A stretch of DNA of 4,771 bases from a virus (lineage: Duplodnaviria; Heunggongvirae; Uroviricota; Caudoviricetes), in the IMG/VR virus record IMGVR_UViG_2703718827_000009, positions 1-4,771 of that record; one strand, 5' to 3'. The position numbers and the translations under genes were made by a program. A model generated the notes under the pieces. The model saw only the letters and a list, made by a program, of their open reading frames with translations, searched no databases and had not been told where the DNA came from. Below, piece after piece: positions 1 to 4,771 of this stretch. Every line of letters starts with the position of its first letter. Positions within the stretch are counted from its first letter, which is position 1.

Positions 1-318
1 TCACACCATCCTGTCGTCTTCGATCGCACTGTTGATGAAGTACGTCACCCTTCCCAACACCTCGACCTCTTCCGCTGCCTCACCTTCTATCGCTTCGCCA
101 TCATCCGTGATTAATGCCCTTCCCCTGAGTTTCGCAAATTGTGTTCGACCGCCGGACAAGATCAATAGCACCTGCCCCTGCACTAACCGGGTAACCGGTT
201 CGATAACCGCAAACCCGGAAGACGTTTCCAGGATGCGGGTATCAATGCCCACACCACAGATGAGTTCCGGTGTCATCCGCTGAGACACGTAATCAGCAGC
301 CGGTGAAGGAAAGCCCAT
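1..318 (-). CDS. UmuD'-like (HumD-like) S24/LexA-family beta-barrel protein; N-terminus in window at 318, 3' end beyond the window edge
   Basis: The product begins M-GFPSPAADYVSQR, matching from memory the segment of E. coli UmuD that follows its RecA-mediated cleavage site (GFPSPAADYVEQR). Later segments (GQVLLILSGGRTQFAKLRGR; EVEVLGRVTYFI) align loosely with the UmuD C-terminal strands. An in-frame stop lies 17 codons upstream (372..370), so no N-terminal arm is encoded. Start ATG 318..316 has a strong SD GGGAGGG 7 nt upstream and overlaps the stop of the upstream ORF (TGATG). Confidence 0.6.
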   Translation of the reverse strand: MGFPSPAADYVSQRMTPELICGVGIDTRILETSSGFAVIEPVTRLVQGQVLLILSGGRTQFAKLRGRALITDDGEAIEGEAAEEVEVLGRVTYFINSAIEDDRMV

Positions 319-557
319 CAGTGAACCCTCCCCATGTTGCGCAGGATCCAGTAGTGATTGTCGGTTCCGTCAGTTGTCTTGTCGGTAAAATCTGGCTGGT
401 AGTACTTTATCCACTCGTTGGCGTCGGCCCGGGTGAAATGCCAGTGGACCTTTGCCAGCTCGCGGATAAAGTCTTCTGTGCGTAAGCACCGGTAGCCCTT
501 GGAGTTTAGCTGTATTGCGGCCACAAATGCGCTGTGAATGTCTGATTGGCGGGGCAT
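318..557 (-). CDS. Small hypothetical protein (79 aa from ATG at 557; the reading frame stays open up to 644), first gene of a putative SOS-regulated pair
   Basis: Open frame 644..318 in the ORF track. The internal ATG at 557 is preferred because the LexA box (572..591) would otherwise lie inside the coding sequence; an AAGAG purine tract sits about 8 nt upstream of it. Its stop is translationally coupled to the downstream UmuD'-like gene. I recognise no family for the product (MPRQSDIHSAFVAAIQLNSKGYRCLRTEDFIRELAKVHWHF...). Confidence 0.45.
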   Translation of the reverse strand: MPRQSDIHSAFVAAIQLNSKGYRCLRTEDFIRELAKVHWHFTRADANEWIKYYQPDFTDKTTDGTDNHYWILRNMGRVH

Positions 558-571
558 GATCTGCACTCTTT

Positions 572-591
572 TACTGTTTTTATATACAGTA
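572..591. promoter_or_regulatory. LexA (SOS) box, TACTGTTTTTATATACAGTA
   Basis: Palindromic CTGT-N8-ACAG with an AT-rich spacer, matching the gammaproteobacterial consensus TACTG(TA)5CAGTA at about 17-18 of 20 positions. It lies 15 nt upstream of the minus-strand ATG at 557 and about 7 nt upstream of a strong plus-strand SD (598..604), in a divergent intergenic region. Confidence 0.7.
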
Positions 592-615
592 GTTTTAAAG
601 GAGGTGCAGATCAAG

Positions 616-696
616 ATGGCTAGGCCTATCAATGGAGCAACCATGAGATTTAGCAGTTTGCGACCGCCGCTCCTCCCTCAAGCGAAACCACCGTGA
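616..696 (+). CDS. Candidate 26-aa small ORF (MARPINGATMRFSSLRPPLLPQAKPP) behind a near-perfect Shine-Dalgarno sequence; speculative
   Basis: AAGGAGGTG at 598..606 is a near-perfect anti-SD complement, followed after an 11-nt spacer by ATG 616 and an open frame to TGA 694..696. It sits directly downstream of the LexA box and upstream of, on the same strand as, the glycosyltransferase gene. The peptide is basic and Pro-rich with no recognisable family; it may equally be a chance ORF. Confidence 0.2.
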   Translation: MARPINGATMRFSSLRPPLLPQAKPP

Positions 697-731: not shown

Positions 732-1913
732 ATGAAAGTTGCTGTTTTGATGATGCAAAAGGATGAGTACCGGCTTCTTGAGCCATGGATACTGCATCAT
801 GCTGAGCTTTTTGGCCTTGAAAATTTATACGTCTACGATAACGGGTCAGCAGATGAGCGATGCCTTAACATTCTTAAGGAATATTCGGGAAAAGGGATGA
901 ATGTCGTTTATGACAGAAGCACCTTTGATGATTTCAATACCAGACATATCTACTTCGTAGACAAATACGAAGAATTAAAGAATTATCATGGCTATGATTT
1001 TATGATGCCACTTGATTGTGATGAGTTTGTCGGCGTTGAATTTTCAAAGGGTAAGGTGTCGCTGTCTAAAAATGACGTGTTGAATGAATTATCAAAATAT
1101 ATAGAAACCGACGCCACATTTAAAATTAAATATACATATGGCAACCACCCGCTTAACCCCAAAGAATTTGCGTTAAGCCCTAAACCTGAGAAAGTGTTCT
1201 TCCCTAAATCAAGAATCACTGCGCTGGGTAATGGCTTCCATCGCGGTGAGGTTGAGTCAGGCCATCAAGTTGATACCGATATCATTTACCTTCATTTCCA
1301 TCATAAAAAATATGATGACTATATCGCCAGCGCCCGTAATAAACTGGAAGGTCTTGTTGACGTCAATGATATTGAGGCTCTGAAGGCATTCAAAGGGGCG
1401 GGACATCATTTAGTCAAAAAGTTCCTGATGACTCAGACTGAATATTACGATATGCATGCAGCTTCGAAATCTATCAACCCGTCTAAGTTCTTTATTATGG
1501 ATGGAGTTTATGAATACCTGAAGGGTATGGGGCTGAATCTGGAGCAAGCATTAACGGTTGAGCACGATGAAAGTAGAATAACGTGGCATGGTTACGTAGA
1601 CAGGGTAAGAGAAGAGGAAGCGTCATGCGTTTTCACAGGGTGGTGCGTGCCCACTGAGGGCGTTGAGCAGCAGTTCTTTAACTTACGCATAGGACAGGAG
1701 ATCCTGCCCGGTTTTCTGGAGGAAAAAATTCAGCGCTCAGATGTTGTAGCGAAGTTCCCAGATTACAATCTGGACTGCGGATATTTAGTGAGATTCTACG
1801 GATTAACCAAAGGTGCATTGCAGCGTAACGAGTGGGAATTTCATGTTACTGCCGGATGTAAAGGCACTGGTTCAAAACTCAACAGAAGGAAAACAGAGTC
1901 ATACTTCCAATAA
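732..1913 (+). CDS. GT-A fold glycosyltransferase (family-2-like, resembling the Glyco_tranf_2_4 type), 393 aa, with a C-terminal domain of unknown function
   Basis: The N-terminus MKVAVLMMQKDEYRLLEPWILHHAELFGLENLYVYDNGSADE follows the E-W..HH...G....Y.YDNGS.D pattern of GT-A enzymes, and a DxD-type motif PLDCDEF lies about 90 aa in. ATG 732 has a good SD (AAGGA, 7-nt spacer); the GTG at 693 listed in the ORF track has none. Stop TAA 1911..1913 is followed immediately by a strong terminator. No obvious transmembrane segment. The gene is visibly more AT-rich than its flanks. Confidence 0.65.
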   Translation: MKVAVLMMQKDEYRLLEPWILHHAELFGLENLYVYDNGSADERCLNILKEYSGKGMNVVYDRSTFDDFNTRHIYFVDKYEELKNYHGYDFMMPLDCDEFVGVEFSKGKVSLSKNDVLNELSKYIETDATFKIKYTYGNHPLNPKEFALSPKPEKVFFPKSRITALGNGFHRGEVESGHQVDTDIIYLHFHHKKYDDYIASARNKLEGLVDVNDIEALKAFKGAGHHLVKKFLMTQTEYYDMHAASKSINPSKFFIMDGVYEYLKGMGLNLEQALTVEHDESRITWHGYVDRVREEEASCVFTGWCVPTEGVEQQFFNLRIGQEILPGFLEEKIQRSDVVAKFPDYNLDCGYLVRFYGLTKGALQRNEWEFHVTAGCKGTGSKLNRRKTESYFQ

Positions 1914-1916
1914 AAT

Positions 1917-1940
1917 AAGGCGGGAAATCCCGCCTTTTTT
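1917..1940. terminator. Bidirectional rho-independent terminator between convergent transcription units
   Basis: GGCGGG (1919..1924) pairs with CCCGCC (1929..1934) around loop AAAT, followed by TTTTTT (1935..1940) on the plus strand. On the minus strand the same hairpin is followed by a U-rich tract (TTATTTTATT). It sits 3 nt after the glycosyltransferase stop and about 40 nt after the stop of the minus-strand 80-aa ORF. Confidence 0.75.
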
Positions 1941-1975
1941 ACCTTCCCATGCCTTAGAATTGCCATTATTTTCAG

Positions 1976-2218
1976 CTAGCAATCAATTGTCGCATAAGGA
2001 AGTTCTGTCTTCGCATGTTTATAGCACTGCTCGAAGATATTAGGACCAGCGAGGTCATAATCGCATTCCATTGTTTGACGGTCTATCTGTGCTTTTTCGC
2101 CGGTTATTGGATGGTCAATATACTGAATGAGATCGTATTGTGCACGGTACTTTCCGTGCACTCTTGGCAGTTCAACGCGAATATAAACAGATCCTTCATT
2201 ATCATTCGTCAGTGCCAT
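1976..2218 (-). CDS. Hypothetical small acidic protein, 80 aa; last gene of the tailspike operon
   Basis: ATG 2218..2216 is preceded by SD GAGGT with a 5-nt spacer; stop TAG at 1978..1976. The start overlaps the preceding small ORF by 17 nt. The product (MALTNDNEGSVYIRVELPRVHGKYRAQYDLIQYIDHPITGEKAQIDRQTMECDYDLAGPNIFEQCYKHAKTELPYATIDC) has balanced composition with no signal peptide or transmembrane segment, and I recognise no family. The antisense plus-strand ORF (2015..2245) has a low-complexity hydrophobic product and looks spurious. Confidence 0.5.
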   Translation of the reverse strand: MALTNDNEGSVYIRVELPRVHGKYRAQYDLIQYIDHPITGEKAQIDRQTMECDYDLAGPNIFEQCYKHAKTELPYATIDC

Positions 2219-2363
2219 TCTTTACCTCGTGAAGAGATTCGATAGGGCTATCTAATTCTGCCTGCAATGCATTCATTGAAGCATTAAAAGCAGGAACTTC
2301 ATGACCGCTAAGATTTACGCGAAGCATAAACTGCATGATATTCTGAATAGTTTGCTTATCCAT
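2202..2363 (-). CDS. Hypothetical small acidic protein, 53 aa, immediately downstream of the tailspike gene
   Basis: This ORF is not in the supplied track (too short); I translated it by hand as MDKQTIQNIMQFMLRVNLSGHEVPAFNASMNALQAELDSPIESLHEVKNGTDE. ATG 2363..2361 is preceded by SD CAGGAC with a 6-7-nt spacer, only 12 nt after the tailspike stop. Stop TGA at 2204..2202 lies inside the start of the next ORF (17-nt overlap), suggesting translational coupling. Confidence 0.45.
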   Translation of the reverse strand: MDKQTIQNIMQFMLRVNLSGHEVPAFNASMNALQAELDSPIESLHEVKNGTDE

Positions 2364-2375
2364 TTTATTGTCCTG

Positions 2376-3878
2376 TTAAGTTAAACCAATTAATCCATGC
2401 CCGGTTGAAGCATGTAAGTCCTGAATTAATGCTGCAACTACCTTTGCTAAATCTTCGTGAGTTATTGTACCAGAATTAAACGCAGCTCTGGAAGTTGTAC
2501 CAGTTGGAGAACCCCATCCAGTTTTCCTCCCAGAAAGAATTTGATTGCCATTAACTCTAACATTCAGGTTGTTAAAGTTAGCCCAGTTCTCCGTCCTGTT
2601 AAGGCTCAAGTATGTCGTATTTGCAGGGCCTGTTCCTACGACAATTCTTTGATTGTCACCCAGCAAAATTGCGCAGTTATTACTGAACCCAGATTCAGTT
2701 AGAGAAATACCCACTCGGAAATTTCCATTTCTGAATCGTATACCATTTGCAGCGTTTGATAAAATAGATCCTTCAAGGCGCACATACTCGCCATTACCAA
2801 CTACAGTAGGTGCCTCTGTTGGCGGTACAATTGAATCGCCCCTGAATAGCAAACCAGTCCATATATACCCGTTAGGCGCAGCCGAGCCTCTTCCGACGTT
2901 AATCATGTGGGTTACACGGTTACTGCCATCGGTAGTGGTACAGACCAGACCTCGCGTATTTCCTTCCAGCTCAGCGCCTACCATCCAACCCTTATCTATG
3001 CTGCATCCATTATTGAGGTTGAATTCATGAACAATTACTGATTTGGCCCCTGTATTTGCTCCTCCAGTGCCTGCATCTCCTGATACTGCGCCGTACGACC
3101 ACCCGCCCCAAGCTTCGGCATTAGCATGGCGAGCCTCCCCCCTGAAATGAGCACCAACTAATTGCCCCGTCCCTCCTTCATGCCTTGCAGCAAAGGTTGC
3201 GGCAGCGCCATAAGCTGAACCACCTTGCTTTTCAAGATAACCGTAAAAGCACCCCTGTTCCCAACGCGAGACACCATCATCACGAGTTGCATTGGACTTT
3301 TTTTCTATCCATTGAACTGGATCTGGCGTGTCTGTAAGGGGTACTGAATATCGTTGCCGCATGGCATTCGAATATTGGATTGTGTTGTTATTGTAGATGT
3401 TTACACCAGCAACATCAGACCCCGTCCAGCCGCCTCCACCATAAAGATCGTCAAGCCCTTTCCCGTCTTTACCTGCAAATAAAGACCTCAAAGAGGCATC
3501 CCCAACACTTACCCATGCTCCGAGCCCAATTCCACCAGTGGAAATAGGAGTAGAGCCAGCTGGAACTACTTTACCGCCAGGAGGAAGCGCACCATCCCAT
3601 CGATAATATTCACCAGTGCTTGTATCTCGTAAAACCTGATTATATAACTCAATAGTTGCGCCAGATTGAAAAGAATCTAATGTTATATATCCAAATGAGG
3701 AAATAGCAGAAGCAGCCATTTCCTCAATTCCATACCACGTCTTACGCTTCCTTCCAAAGCGGTCCTGCCAGAAGGTAGAGTTTAAGTCATTTATTGCAGA
3801 GTCAAAGTTTTGTGAGTTGTCATATAGATCGCGCGGGTCTACTGAGCCCGGCGGATTATTAGTGGCGTATTTGGTCAT
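2376..3878 (-). CDS. Phage tailspike / receptor-binding protein with a predicted parallel beta-helix (polysaccharide depolymerase-like) body, about 500 aa
   Basis: Long minus-strand ORF (track 2376..3893). The central and C-terminal parts are Gly/Asn/Thr/Ser-rich with short repeats of alternating hydrophobic residues and Asn/Gly turns (e.g. NGIRFRNGNFRVGISLTESGFSNNCAILLGDNQRIVVGTG; NLNVRVNGNQILSG), typical of tailspike beta-helices. It sits directly downstream of a large tail structural gene. Start ATG 3878 is preferred (SD GGAG, 5-nt spacer) over ATG 3893, which directly abuts a T-run with no SD. The specific family was not identified from memory. Confidence 0.6.
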   Translation of the reverse strand: MTKYATNNPPGSVDPRDLYDNSQNFDSAINDLNSTFWQDRFGRKRKTWYGIEEMAASAISSFGYITLDSFQSGATIELYNQVLRDTSTGEYYRWDGALPPGGKVVPAGSTPISTGGIGLGAWVSVGDASLRSLFAGKDGKGLDDLYGGGGWTGSDVAGVNIYNNNTIQYSNAMRQRYSVPLTDTPDPVQWIEKKSNATRDDGVSRWEQGCFYGYLEKQGGSAYGAAATFAARHEGGTGQLVGAHFRGEARHANAEAWGGWSYGAVSGDAGTGGANTGAKSVIVHEFNLNNGCSIDKGWMVGAELEGNTRGLVCTTTDGSNRVTHMINVGRGSAAPNGYIWTGLLFRGDSIVPPTEAPTVVGNGEYVRLEGSILSNAANGIRFRNGNFRVGISLTESGFSNNCAILLGDNQRIVVGTGPANTTYLSLNRTENWANFNNLNVRVNGNQILSGRKTGWGSPTGTTSRAAFNSGTITHEDLAKVVAALIQDLHASTGHGLIGLT

Positions 3879-3893
3879 GCTCGCTCCGGGCAT

Positions 3894-3934: not shown

Positions 3935-4771
3935 TTAAGCGGCGTCACCGGGGTATGTGGCGTCGTCATAGGCATACTTTCCTGGGTGGTACTGGATGGC
4001 TGTTACCTGACTGATCCCGTCATTGCCTGGGGATATTTCCCCCACCAGTGCGTCATACGGCACACGGACAGACGAGCAGAACAGCAGGCGCGGCGGCTCA
4101 ATGTACGCATCGTTCATTGCCCATAATTCCGGCTCCAGCGCGGCGCTGTACGGCACCGAGATCGTGAAGTCGTCAATGCGAGTCGGCACCACCATGGCTG
4201 ATGCCCTGCCGTCCTGATGGCGGATAATTACGCGCGGGTTTTCAAACGACCAGTCCGGGGACTCACTGAGCGTCATAGTGATTTTGCTGCTGTCATATGT
4301 CATATCGGTAATCAGGCAACTCAGCGTCTGGCTGCCGGGGATGTCATCGGCCAGCACAATGCGATCCATGAACTCATAACAGAGCGCATCCATCTCTGTT
4401 GATGTGGTGTGCTGCAGGCGCTGAAGCTGGTAGCCCAGCAACCGGCGCATGCCGATGCGGTAAGCGCGGTCCTCGTCCAGAACGCCATCCAGCGTGTAGC
4501 TCTCGATTTTCACCGGCGTAGGGTTGCCAGGCAGGCGACACTGCACGGTCTCCTCTGCCCAGGTGGTACCGTTGATATACGTCACGTCCACGCCATCGTA
4601 ATCGTCCTGAGACGGGGCCTTAAACGCGGTCTGCAACTCCTCGGTGGTTTCCTGCGGGGTGATCATGCCTACCCAGGGTTTAATCCCTTCCCGGCCAGCA
4701 GACGCCAGCCCGTCAGACAGCAGGAAATACCCCATCCCCGCGTTGGTGATTTTCTGCAGCACCTCAAGTGC
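3935..4771 (-). CDS. C-terminal ~275 aa of a large phage tail structural protein (possibly central tail fibre or tail-tip, host-specificity type); 5' end beyond the window
   Basis: The minus-strand frame is open from the window edge (reads ...ALEVLQKITNAG...) to stop TAA 3937..3935. GC-rich with enteric-like codon usage (frequent CTG, GCG, CGC). It sits immediately upstream of the tailspike gene. I could not match it confidently to lambda J from memory, so the identity is inferred from position only. Confidence 0.5.
   Translation of the reverse strand, partial: ALEVLQKITNAGMGYFLLSDGLASAGREGIKPWVGMITPQETTEELQTAFKAPSQDDYDGVDVTYINGTTWAEETVQCRLPGNPTPVKIESYTLDGVLDEDRAYRIGMRRLLGYQLQRLQHTTSTEMDALCYEFMDRIVLADDIPGSQTLSCLITDMTYDSSKITMTLSESPDWSFENPRVIIRHQDGRASAMVVPTRIDDFTISVPYSAALEPELWAMNDAYIEPPRLLFCSSVRVPYDALVGEISPGNDGISQVTAIQYHPGKYAYDDATYPGDAA

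Follow-up and report, generated by a model that had tools for sequence, protein, structure and literature searches.

A conserved 79-residue phage protein with a predicted winged-helix fold, encoded ahead of a UmuD'-like gene in a putative LexA-repressed operon

DinI (PF06183) is a protein of about 80 aa that binds RecA filaments and modulates the SOS response; it is built as a three-stranded sheet on two helices and carries an acidic C-terminal helix. The plasmid gene impC, which is placed ahead of impA, reportedly encodes a DinI homologue (Yasuda et al. 1998). In coliphage 186, a DinI-like domain is fused to an antirepressor to give the LexA-controlled protein Tum, split versions of which occur in PSP3 and Fels-2. 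Smaller antirepressors are encoded by the Gifsy prophages and Fels-1 (GfoA, GftA and FsoA) and by Qin (Rem), and these act on repressors of the GfoR/GftR/DicA type (PMC3121763; PMC10448788). The locus described here resembles that of ImpC/DinI in three respects: the product has about 80 aa, the gene is predicted to be LexA-controlled, and it lies immediately upstream of a umuD-type gene (as in impC-impA-impB). A sequence-only reading of this DNA had already likened the layout to that of impCAB while seeing no homology, and both halves of that statement hold. The 79-aa protein gave no Pfam match to DinI or ImpC (nothing at E<=1 except noise), and a DinI HMM run on the E3 prophage, the closest relative, gave no match, although the same HMM found both Gifsy-2 DinI and Tum.

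The window, by which we mean the whole stretch of 4,771 nucleotides that was analysed (IMG/VR record IMGVR_UViG_2703718827_000009), carries the operon past the tail-spike genes of a lambdoid prophage, at its outer end. The features on which the argument turns are the following:

586 to 614, minus strand: predicted sigma-70 promoter, read from the letters, with -35 TTGATC (614-609), a 17-nt spacer and -10 TACTGT (591-586)
572 to 591, palindromic: LexA (SOS) box TACTGTTTTTATATACAGTA, an exact match to the consensus, ending 14 nt upstream of the ATG at 557
566 to 570, minus strand: putative weak Shine-Dalgarno AAGAG of the 79-aa ORF, 8 nt before its ATG
318 to 557, minus strand: coding sequence of the 79-aa protein (MPRQSD...NMGRVH), PHROG 3893, predicted winged helix (profile match, homologue lengths, dN/dS, AlphaFold2)
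326 to 333, minus strand: Shine-Dalgarno GGGGAGGG of the UmuD'-like gene, within codons 75-78 (Met-Gly-Arg-Val) of the 79-aa ORF (codon usage)
316 to 320, minus strand: TGATG stop/start overlap between the two cistrons, with 1 nt shared
1 to 318, minus strand: second cistron, encoding a shortened UmuD'-like protein of 105 aa (MGFPSPAADYVSQR...) (PHROG 3469, N-arm match, alignment)

The LexA box agrees exactly with the 20-nt consensus, at all 12 specified positions of TACTGT-N8-ACAGTA, and none of 200 shuffles gave a match. CTGT-N8-ACAG is kept at -32 to -41 in 70 of 72 related loci, and a LexA box also precedes family members in four further genomic contexts. The left half of the box doubles as the predicted -10 hexamer, TACTGT; the same TTGAyn-17-TACTGT layout is found in HK140 and HK225 and at loci L110 and L111, and the LexA site at the annotated p95 promoter of phage 186 likewise opens with the -10 hexamer, six bases long. 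A promoter consensus scan did not flag the predicted promoter at 586 to 614. The ORF does sit between the LexA box and the UmuD'-like gene, as first described, and we read the two genes, from sequence, as a LexA-repressed two-gene SOS operon in which the 79-aa gene is promoter-proximal.

The extent of that gene had been left between two starts. On the minus strand the ORF runs from 644 to 318 (108 aa), ending in TGA at 320-318, and an internal ATG at 557 gives 79 aa. The PHROG 3893 profile aligns over all 79 of its positions with residues 30-108 of the long ORF (E 1.4e-38), homologues are 76-79 aa long among the best 120, and an in-frame upstream ATG exists in only 3 of 74 related loci, all of which point to the start at 557. 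The LexA box and the predicted promoter would, in addition, fall within the supposed N-terminal extension, and the 108-aa form was rejected in favor of the shorter one. The dN/dS ratio is 0.12 in the 79-aa frame, whereas the two shifted frames give 1.25 and 1.66, and distant family members in other contexts match PHROG 3893 at E 1e-15 to 1e-21. The claim that the ORF encodes a real small protein is thus borne out by the low dN/dS, the end-to-end profile match and the constant length of the homologues, and we take the ORF from 557 to be a genuine conserved gene, far beyond chance.

The product had also been said to belong to no recognisable family. This stands as far as Pfam, NCBIfam, PADLOC, the PDB (by sequence and by profile) and Rfam are concerned, since no relatives were found in any of them (the best PADLOC match, to a “trypsin-like” model at E 0.007, was not significant), but it does not stand for PHROG 3893, an enterobacterial phage family annotated without function, which contains the gene. 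A search of the literature on UmuD-like proteins, HumD, antirepressors and LexA found no study of this family; a paper on Gifsy-1 STM14_3218-3220 turned out to have no bearing on it. Natural fusions to S24 or DinI domains were considered as well and discarded, as every longer database entry proved to be a frameshift or an assembly artefact.

The two genes are knit together at their junction. The stop TGA (320-318) and the ATG of the 105-aa gene (318-316) have an A in common, and the Shine-Dalgarno of the second gene lies inside the last codons of the first, both just as the sequence-only reading had it. The T[GA]ATG overlap is kept in nearly all related loci, and LexA box, 1-nt overlap and UmuD'-like partner recur together in about 70 of them. 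Codon usage at the embedded Shine-Dalgarno is strikingly skewed: Arg77 is AGG or AGA in 53 of 53 distinct coding sequences, whereas AGR makes up 7% at other positions of the gene, and GGG encodes Gly76 in 58 of 64 (5% elsewhere), a bias which indicates that the embedded site is selected at the nucleotide level. In a divergent subfamily whose members end in NPNGG, GGAGG is likewise encoded at this position. Conservation of the overlap and the codon bias both support the earlier suggestion of co-translation, and the 79-aa ORF is probably translationally coupled to the UmuD'-like gene.

The 105-aa partner has the N-terminus MGFPSPAADY and begins at the UmuD cleavage point; its N-arm matches UmuD residues 25-41, and it matches PHROG 3469 (“UmuD-like”) at E 4.5e-45. 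A full-length MAFFT alignment with UmuD'/HumD shows an 11-residue deletion and the absence of the Ser60 loop. Because the AlphaFold2 model of the partner is poor (pLDDT 43), UmuD' homology beyond the N-arm rests on this alignment and on the context in phage CobraSix, where a homologue of the partner is found in a LexA box - umuD' - umuC operon. The partner family appears to be a real Pol V accessory. We propose that, after DNA damage, LexA would leave the box that overlaps the -10 hexamer and the operon would be transcribed; ribosomes ending the 79-aa ORF would restart, or be recruited, at the Shine-Dalgarno in its last codons, and the second product would then be made, a shortened UmuD' mimic born already “cleaved.”

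The AlphaFold2 model of the 79-aa protein (pLDDT 89.6, pTM 0.79) has the topology H-b-H-H-b-b, which fits that of a winged helix (H1-b1-H2-H3-b2-wing-b3), and its structural matches are generic winged helices; the prediction, a high-confidence one, is of a single winged-helix domain. The idea of a LexA-like protein that had been split at the cleavage site was also considered and rejected, as there is no profile similarity (hhalign gave a probability of 0.07% for the LexA N-terminal domain against the 79-aa family) and the best structural matches do not include LexA.

Family DNA occurs in about 2% of complete E. coli genomes, and the family is present in many prophages of Enterobacter, Leclercia, Klebsiella, Salmonella, Erwinia and Pantoea and on some conjugative plasmids. 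The divergent neighbor of the small ORF is a glycosyltransferase gene in the window and DinI or other genes elsewhere. A DinI-like gene divergently adjoins it in mEp390, HK140, HK225, Flotzy, Eeyore and LLS, and adjoins it in 12-16 of 80 IMG/VR loci; because the two are so often side by side, they are not simple substitutes for one another. More distant members are found in different surroundings. In the P2-like prophages L103 and L104, the family member stands alone behind the only LexA box in 20 kb, at the tum locus, where phage 186 has p95-tum. The repressors of these prophages are HTH proteins of 113-120 aa with no S24 domain, and an identical small protein occurs with two such repressors that have the same C-terminal halves but different HTH parts. 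In L110, the member is alone behind a LexA box and adjoins int, and in L100, where it has no LexA box, it follows a theta/HOT gene.

In L113, the only LexA box in 20 kb precedes the family member, which heads a LexA-controlled unit in the nin region, with a Rem-like gene after it; L113 has a repressor homologous to GftR (36% identity, E 4e-28) and contains no DinI gene. The Rem-like assignment is weak, as the gene belongs to a function-less family (PHROG 340, at 8.6e-14) and the precomputed Pfam match to Rem was marked “weak” and was unreproduced in our own Pfam scan. At the place that matches the L113 unit, Gifsy-2 has LexA box - dinI - gftA (seen in its sequence; also PMC3121763). Among carriers, a non-cleavable repressor is found only in these phages with distant members (L103/L104 and L113). 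In the closest carriers (the E3 prophage, mEp390, HK140 and Flotzy), the repressors are of the HTH+Peptidase_S24 kind and contain the GDSM and Lys motifs and the Ala-Gly site; these carriers encode a self-cleaving CI, and the gene is therefore unnecessary for inducing their own prophage. For the same reason, a role as antirepressor of its own prophage was rejected for this window. Since family members also stand alone behind LexA boxes, the constant feature of the family is SOS control, rather than UmuD'.

The explanation that we tentatively put forward, as possible rather than probable, is that the 79-aa protein is an SOS-induced accessory factor which binds protein and takes the part that DinI/ImpC plays elsewhere. 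It would bind another protein, not DNA, would belong to the RecA*/UmuD'/Pol V branch of the SOS response, and would be a functional analogue of DinI/ImpC, not a homologue. The main argument comes from genomic position, as family members fill the same four slots as DinI-type genes: before a umuD-like gene (for the DinI type, before impA); alone behind a LexA box at a prophage end (DinI-type genes likewise stand alone at prophage ends); first in a LexA-controlled nin-region operon of a phage with a Gifsy-type repressor (compare the Gifsy LexA-dinI-gfoA operon); and at the tum locus of P2/186-type prophages (where the DinI type is fused into Tum). This slot-based argument is circumstantial. The same reading is favored by the net acidic charge of helix 3 and the wing, by the persistence of the pairing with UmuD' over partner classes and small-protein subfamilies, and by the Pol V connection of the partner family. 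Several observations count against it: DinI genes neighbor the small ORF, the two differ in fold and have no sequence similarity, L100 lacks a LexA box, and the Rem-like call in L113 is weak.

The sequence-only reading had suggested instead a regulator or partner of the UmuD'-like protein. A dedicated partner would bind the mimic, for example at its GFPSPAxDY arm, and would stabilise, chaperone or regulate it, or the use of host UmuC; co-translation would supply the two in matched amounts. The pairing, with its 1-nt overlap, is near-universal among close relatives, is kept in both subfamilies of the small protein, and spans three classes of partner (105-aa, 107-109-aa and 127-129-aa HumD types), so that it outlasts swaps between mini-UmuD' and HumD in which the N-arm is the only clearly common segment. 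An IncFIB plasmid, too, has the two genes as a joint cassette, about two thirds of mini-UmuD' phage records also carry the small ORF (a count taken from two match lists), and the mean pI of the small protein is 8.2, near neutral, against an acidic 4.4 for its partner. Yet the same LexA box and leader stand directly before the UmuD'-like gene, with no small ORF, in Kp4871-1, BUCT554 and OXA245phi3.2, the small ORF is absent upstream of humD in P1, N15 and HK639, and family members are alone or have other neighbors in L103, L110, L113, L100 and HK225. With the genes separable in both directions and SOS control as the constant link, we consider a specific partnership doubtful. Rather less is to be said for an unrelated cargo gene, or “moron,” on an SOS promoter (an anti-defence, superinfection-exclusion or host-takeover factor, for example), whose linkage to umuD' would have come from the use of one promoter and from recombination at the conserved sequence of the arm, and not from a shared function. 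The prophage end is a typical cargo region, with a glycosyltransferase cargo gene adjoining; the small ORF and the UmuD'-like gene are each optional; and a family member is also found in an early-left operon with no LexA box. SOS control, however, is kept in five different genomic contexts, the pairing persists across deep divergence and on plasmids, and PADLOC gave no significant match, all of which make simple cargo quite improbable.

An antirepressor like Tum, GfoA/GftA or Rem, made under LexA control during SOS and binding a phage repressor so as to lift lysogenic repression, is in our view unlikely. Where the phage has a self-cleaving CI, as is the case here, its targets would be co-resident prophages with short non-cleavable repressors, on which it would act in trans. 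There is a precedent in FsoA of Fels-1, which acts in trans and comes from a phage with a cleavable repressor (PMC3121763), and the distant carriers are suggestive: of the genes in 20 kb of the P2-like prophages, the family member alone is LexA-controlled; it occupies the tum locus opposite repressors lacking S24, and is identical beside two repressors alike in the C-terminal half but not in the HTH, and the L113 repressor is related to GftR. Set against this are the HTH+Peptidase_S24 repressors of the closest carriers, the retention of the protein across phages with different immunity regions, the lack of similarity to Tum (hhalign probability 0.1%) or GftA (the family HMM gave no match in Gifsy-2, GftA included), and the Rem-like gene just downstream in L113, which is the more obvious candidate there. 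A sequence-specific winged-HTH regulator of DNA, tuning its own operon, the divergent dinI/glycosyltransferase gene or other phage promoters, seems very improbable. Helix 3 is invariant or nearly so at A46, N47, W49, I50 and Q54, but the wing and helix 3 are net acidic throughout the family (mean net charge -2.1 and -0.8, respectively), which is unusual for a DNA-binding winged helix; this charge argument is itself weak because the LexA recognition helix, which we take to be acidic too, binds DNA. Inspection of the upstream sequences by eye revealed no conserved candidate operator besides the LexA box, and the divergent neighbor varies. A broader formulation would make PHROG 3893 a new class of SOS effector, a compact winged helix unrelated to DinI, Tum, GfoA or Rem, lying behind a LexA box in at least three temperate-phage lineages and serving as a switch that binds repressors or S24 proteins; it would be an antirepressor or co-factor in P2-like and Gifsy-like phages and, in lambdoid phages with self-cleaving CI, would act in trans on neighboring prophages or on host UmuD/RecA*. 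We hold this, too, to be unlikely.

SOS-controlled phage genes set the timing of prophage wake-up and the extent of error-prone repair in damaged cells, both of which have consequences for how virulence and resistance genes spread and for antibiotic-induced mutagenesis. The module described here would supply a UmuD' that needs no RecA-mediated cleavage, and would thereby bypass the main timing checkpoint of Pol V. A companion that modulated RecA*, Pol V or phage repressors would bring a new fold into the small group of known SOS modulators (DinI, RecX, PsiB, Tum and GfoA), and would offer a reason why phages keep the pair together.

Compared with the systems set out at the beginning, the 79-aa protein shares its positions with DinI/ImpC but neither the fold (alpha/beta in DinI, a predicted winged helix here) nor any sequence similarity. 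Like Tum, it would be expressed from a promoter in which the left half of the LexA box serves as the -10 hexamer, and a family member holds the tum locus in a P2-like prophage with a non-cleavable repressor; the 79-aa protein is, however, half the size of Tum, and the phage type of the window has a self-cleaving CI. Like GfoA/GftA, it is small, encoded outside the immunity region and LexA-controlled (as those of Gifsy are), and a family member heads a LexA-controlled nin-region unit in a phage with a GftR-type repressor; GftA differs in having no similarity to the family, and L113 has a separate Rem-like gene after the family member. DdrR with UmuDAb in Acinetobacter and gp7 with LexA in GIL01 may embody the same concept, a small protein whose gene adjoins that of a UmuD- or LexA-type protein or which acts on such a protein; DdrR and gp7, which bind S24-family SOS regulators, are reported to be co-repressors acting with DNA-binding S24 proteins, and the parallel is one of analogy, not homology. 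The lxr gene of P1 was considered as a relative and set aside: it encodes 190 aa on the opposite strand, and the P1 locus gave no match to the family HMM. As for the second cistron, HumD of P1 and gp26 of N15 are LexA-controlled, pre-processed UmuD' mimics at the end of the tail-fibre region, like the partner in the window; humD is a single gene in P1, N15 and HK639, whereas the partner described here is shorter, lacks the Ser60 loop and is preceded by the small ORF.

The sequence-only reading placed a small ORF of 79-108 aa, of "no recognisable family," between a LexA box and a UmuD'-like gene, and every sequence feature that it described, both neighbors included, is indeed present:

1-318, minus strand: shortened UmuD'-like protein (the partner), 105 aa, beginning MGFPSPAADY
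644-318, minus strand: small ORF, long form of 108 aa; an internal ATG at 557 gives 79 aa
333-326, minus strand: purine run GGGGAGGG, the Shine-Dalgarno (SD) sequence of the partner, within the last codons of the small ORF
320-318 (stop TGA) and 318-316 (partner ATG), minus strand: stop/start overlap TGATG, one base in common
572-591: LexA box, 20-nt palindrome TACTGTTTTTATATACAGTA, an exact match to the E. coli consensus
614-609 (-35, TTGATC) and 591-586 (-10, TACTGT), 17-nt spacer, minus strand: promoter predicted from sequence
732-1913, plus strand: family-2 glycosyltransferase gene (Pfam Glyco_tranf_2_4, E 4e-9)
1976-2218 and 2202-2363, both minus strand: overlapping small ORFs of 80 and 53 aa, just 3' of the tail-spike gene
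2376-3893, minus strand: tail spike with an N-terminal Tail_spike_N (TSP1/Gp66) domain
3935-4762, minus strand: C-terminal part of the TipJ/host-specificity protein

On comparative evidence the small ORF is a real gene, and its start is at 557. The start at 644 was rejected: the profile of PHROG 3893 (a phage family of unknown function, 79 positions) covers residues 30-108 of the 108-aa ORF end to end (E 1.4e-38), 137 relatives came out of 5.8 billion proteins searched and the best 120 of them have lengths of 76-79 aa, and an upstream in-frame ATG precedes the MPR start at only 3 of 74 loci. The predicted promoter and the LexA box also fall within the putative 29-residue N-terminal extension of the longer form. 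For 63 distinct coding sequences the dN/dS ratio of this frame is 0.12, vs. 1.66 and 1.25 when the frame is shifted, and an HMM run exhaustively against 1.84 billion cluster representatives returned just 160 clusters at E<=0.001, almost all of about 79 aa (the longer ones being frameshift artefacts that read into the downstream gene). The protein thus has a family, PHROG 3893; the earlier statement holds in that no Pfam domain was found in the best 120 of the 137 relatives. Source names of the relatives are "hypothetical protein," with a few UniRef entries called "DNA polymerase V."

The LexA box was matched in none of 200 dinucleotide-preserving shuffles, and CTGT-N8-ACAG lies 32-41 nt 5' of the start in 70 of 72 related loci (two phage genomes and 70 IMG/VR contigs). 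TTGATC-17-TACTGT is the likely promoter of the SOS operon: its -10 hexamer doubles as the left half-site of the LexA box, an overlap also annotated for p95, the SOS promoter of phage 186, and the layout is found again in other family loci; it is missing from the list of a simple consensus scan. Downstream, a T(G/A)ATG overlap followed by a protein beginning MGF(P/V/A/T)SPA is present at essentially every locus extending far enough. All 53 of the distinct genes compared use AGG or AGA for Arg77 (AGR makes up 7% elsewhere in the gene), and 58 of 64 use GGG for Gly76 (5% elsewhere), a skew showing that the embedded SD is selected at the nucleotide level; a divergent subfamily ends in ...NPNGG instead of ...NMGRV and still encodes GGAGG at the same place. 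Because of the conserved overlap, the selected codons and this subfamily, the translational coupling that had been proposed from the overlap and the SD is well supported. Sequence and conservation together demonstrate this predicted operon logic.

The partner matches PHROG 3469 "UmuD-like" (E 4.5e-45) and has no match to Pfam Peptidase_S24. Only its N-terminal arm aligns in PDB profile searches and with UmuD in hhalign, and the NCBIfam HumD/UmuD match is confined to its first 19 residues. This arm, GFPSPAADYV.QR, corresponds to UmuD residues 25-37, so that the protein starts exactly at the RecA-stimulated cleavage point of UmuD; loss of the initiator Met, which is followed by Gly, would yield the UmuD' N-terminus. 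When the partner is aligned by MAFFT with UmuD' and HumD-type proteins, its remainder aligns too, with an 11-residue deletion that takes out the loop with catalytic Ser60 and leaves the N-arm and C-terminal strands (the AlphaFold model, pLDDT 43, is unusable). In Enterobacter phage CobraSix a complete operon (1450-3062) has a 101-aa homologue of the partner behind a LexA box and directly 5' of a UmuC homologue (IMS, IMS_C, DUF4113). This amounts to a phage-encoded Pol V, and its gene order makes the partner family a Pol V accessory. The CobraSix UmuD'-like protein lacks the GFPSPA arm.

Relatives of the small protein occur in 47 phage records (E. coli, Klebsiella, Enterobacter, Erwinia, Cronobacter, Pantoea) and 88 plasmid records, including an IncFIB conjugative plasmid that carries the small ORF and partner as an isolated cassette, and there is a DNA-level match in about 110 of 5,426 complete E. 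coli genomes. E. coli E3 is 91% identical across the whole window, and there the SOS operon is the final element of a prophage whose integration site adjoins yciB. The operons of mEp390, HK140 and Flotzy have the tail fibres on one side and attP/int on the other, often with a DinI-like gene in divergent orientation. Three classes of partner are paired with the small ORF (105 aa, 107-109 aa and a 127-129-aa HumD type that Pfam recognizes as S24). The pairing is not obligatory: Kp4871-1, BUCT554 and OXA245phi3.2 have the same LexA box and leader directly 5' of the partner without the small ORF, which is also absent upstream of humD in P1, N15 and HK639.

Other members, matching PHROG 3893 at E 1e-15 to 1e-21, have no UmuD' gene at all. 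One (locus L110) is alone behind a consensus LexA box adjoining int; two in P2-like prophages (L103 and L104) are alone at the tum locus, preceded by a LexA box with no other in 20 kb; another (L113), from a lambdoid phage, occupies the nin region and likewise follows the sole LexA box in 20 kb; and a last (L100) lies directly 3' of a theta/HOT gene without a LexA box. Predicted SOS control, and not UmuD', is therefore the constant feature, in five of six contexts. This range of contexts was not described in the literature searched. In L100 and L101 (2767-3231) the member belongs to a lambdoid early-left operon, where it is translationally coupled (TAAATG) to the gene for DNA polymerase III theta (HOT-like), a second case of a replisome accessory protein paired with a family member. 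In phage HK225 (2501-2800) the small ORF is lengthened to 99 aa and a DNA invertase replaces the UmuD'-like gene, which looks like a natural partner-less variant produced by rearrangement.

Elsewhere in the window, the glycosyltransferase gene is divergent from the SOS operon, with its 3' end at a bidirectional terminator (1917-1936), and is probably a cargo gene adjoining the tail spike, e.g., for O-antigen modification; related E. coli prophages have a GDSL/SGNH esterase at its position, and a variable spike body with conserved N-terminal domain and TipJ. The 80- and 53-aa ORFs matched no family; the E. coli E3 annotation lists both as hypothetical proteins, and other E. coli strains conserve them at 80-90% DNA identity.

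The AlphaFold2 model of the small protein (pLDDT 89.6, pTM 0.79, 25-sequence alignment) is a canonical winged helix (H4-14, b23-26, H27-36, H43-53, b57-59, b69-72; last four residues disordered). Foldseek found nothing in the PDB at E<=0.001 and only the protein's own family in BFVD. A classical DNA-binding regulator is very unlikely. Family-wide, the net charge is negative in both helix 3 (-0.8) and the wing (-2.1), a hint, though no proof, that the domain would bind protein, not DNA. The small ORF and partner could in principle be the two halves of a LexA-like protein divided at the cleavage point, with the winged helix in one and an S24 fragment in the other, for which support is limited to the generic fold, and it is doubtful that the ORF is simply unrelated cargo. 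A dedicated UmuD' partner, itself improbable, would best account for how tightly the genes are coupled and for the persistence of that coupling when partners are swapped, but leaves the stand-alone members unexplained.

An antirepressor, for which we see slightly less likelihood, fits the P2-like case well, where the repressors are HTH proteins of 113-120 aa without an S24 domain. However, the closest carriers (the E3 prophage, mEp390, HK140, Flotzy) have HTH+S24 repressors with the GDSM, Lys motif and Ala-Gly site, so only a trans-acting role would remain, as for Fels-1 FsoA; the small protein has no similarity to Tum or GftA; and L113 has its own, weakly Rem-like, candidate 182 nt downstream of the member with no predicted terminator between. 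The L113 repressor is homologous to GftR (36% identity, E 4e-28). The two P2-like prophages (L103 and L104, 620-1375), about 99% identical over some 16 kb, encode an identical PHROG 3893 protein and repressors of 59% identity with different HTH parts and nearly the same C-terminal half (EEQKLIENYRAMD.AARLN); GftR and the L113 repressor also have a similar motif after the HTH.

The most likely role, which we hold tentatively, is that of a protein-binding accessory factor, induced by SOS, that would act on the RecA*/UmuD'/Pol V axis as DinI/ImpC do, as a functional analogue whose fold differs from theirs; both target and effect we infer. The DinI analogy is weakened by the frequent co-occurrence of the family with DinI-like genes; none was found in the stretches examined of L113, L103 and the E3 prophage. 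Gifsy-2 has a second consensus LexA box (45546) at its right end, inside a second DinI-like ORF (45340-45609, minus strand), a locus that mirrors the prophage-end SOS locus of the window.

The argument for a DinI/ImpC-like role is that the four SOS contexts of the family mirror those of DinI-type genes one for one. The layout is of a known kind, seen in SOS or mutagenesis operons of phages and plasmids that LexA controls and a small gene heads, and impC precedes impA in impCAB as the small ORF precedes the UmuD'-like gene; the resemblance to impCAB drawn earlier, without homology, holds for this arrangement and not for the leading gene, which belongs to a different, uncharacterised family with a different fold. 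The member alone behind its LexA box corresponds to dinI alone at prophage ends. The DinI-like half of phage 186 Tum corresponds to the member at the tum locus of the P2-like prophages, and the LexA-dinI-gfoA order in the Gifsy nin region (PMC3121763; Gifsy-2 sequence examined) to the member in the nin region of L113.
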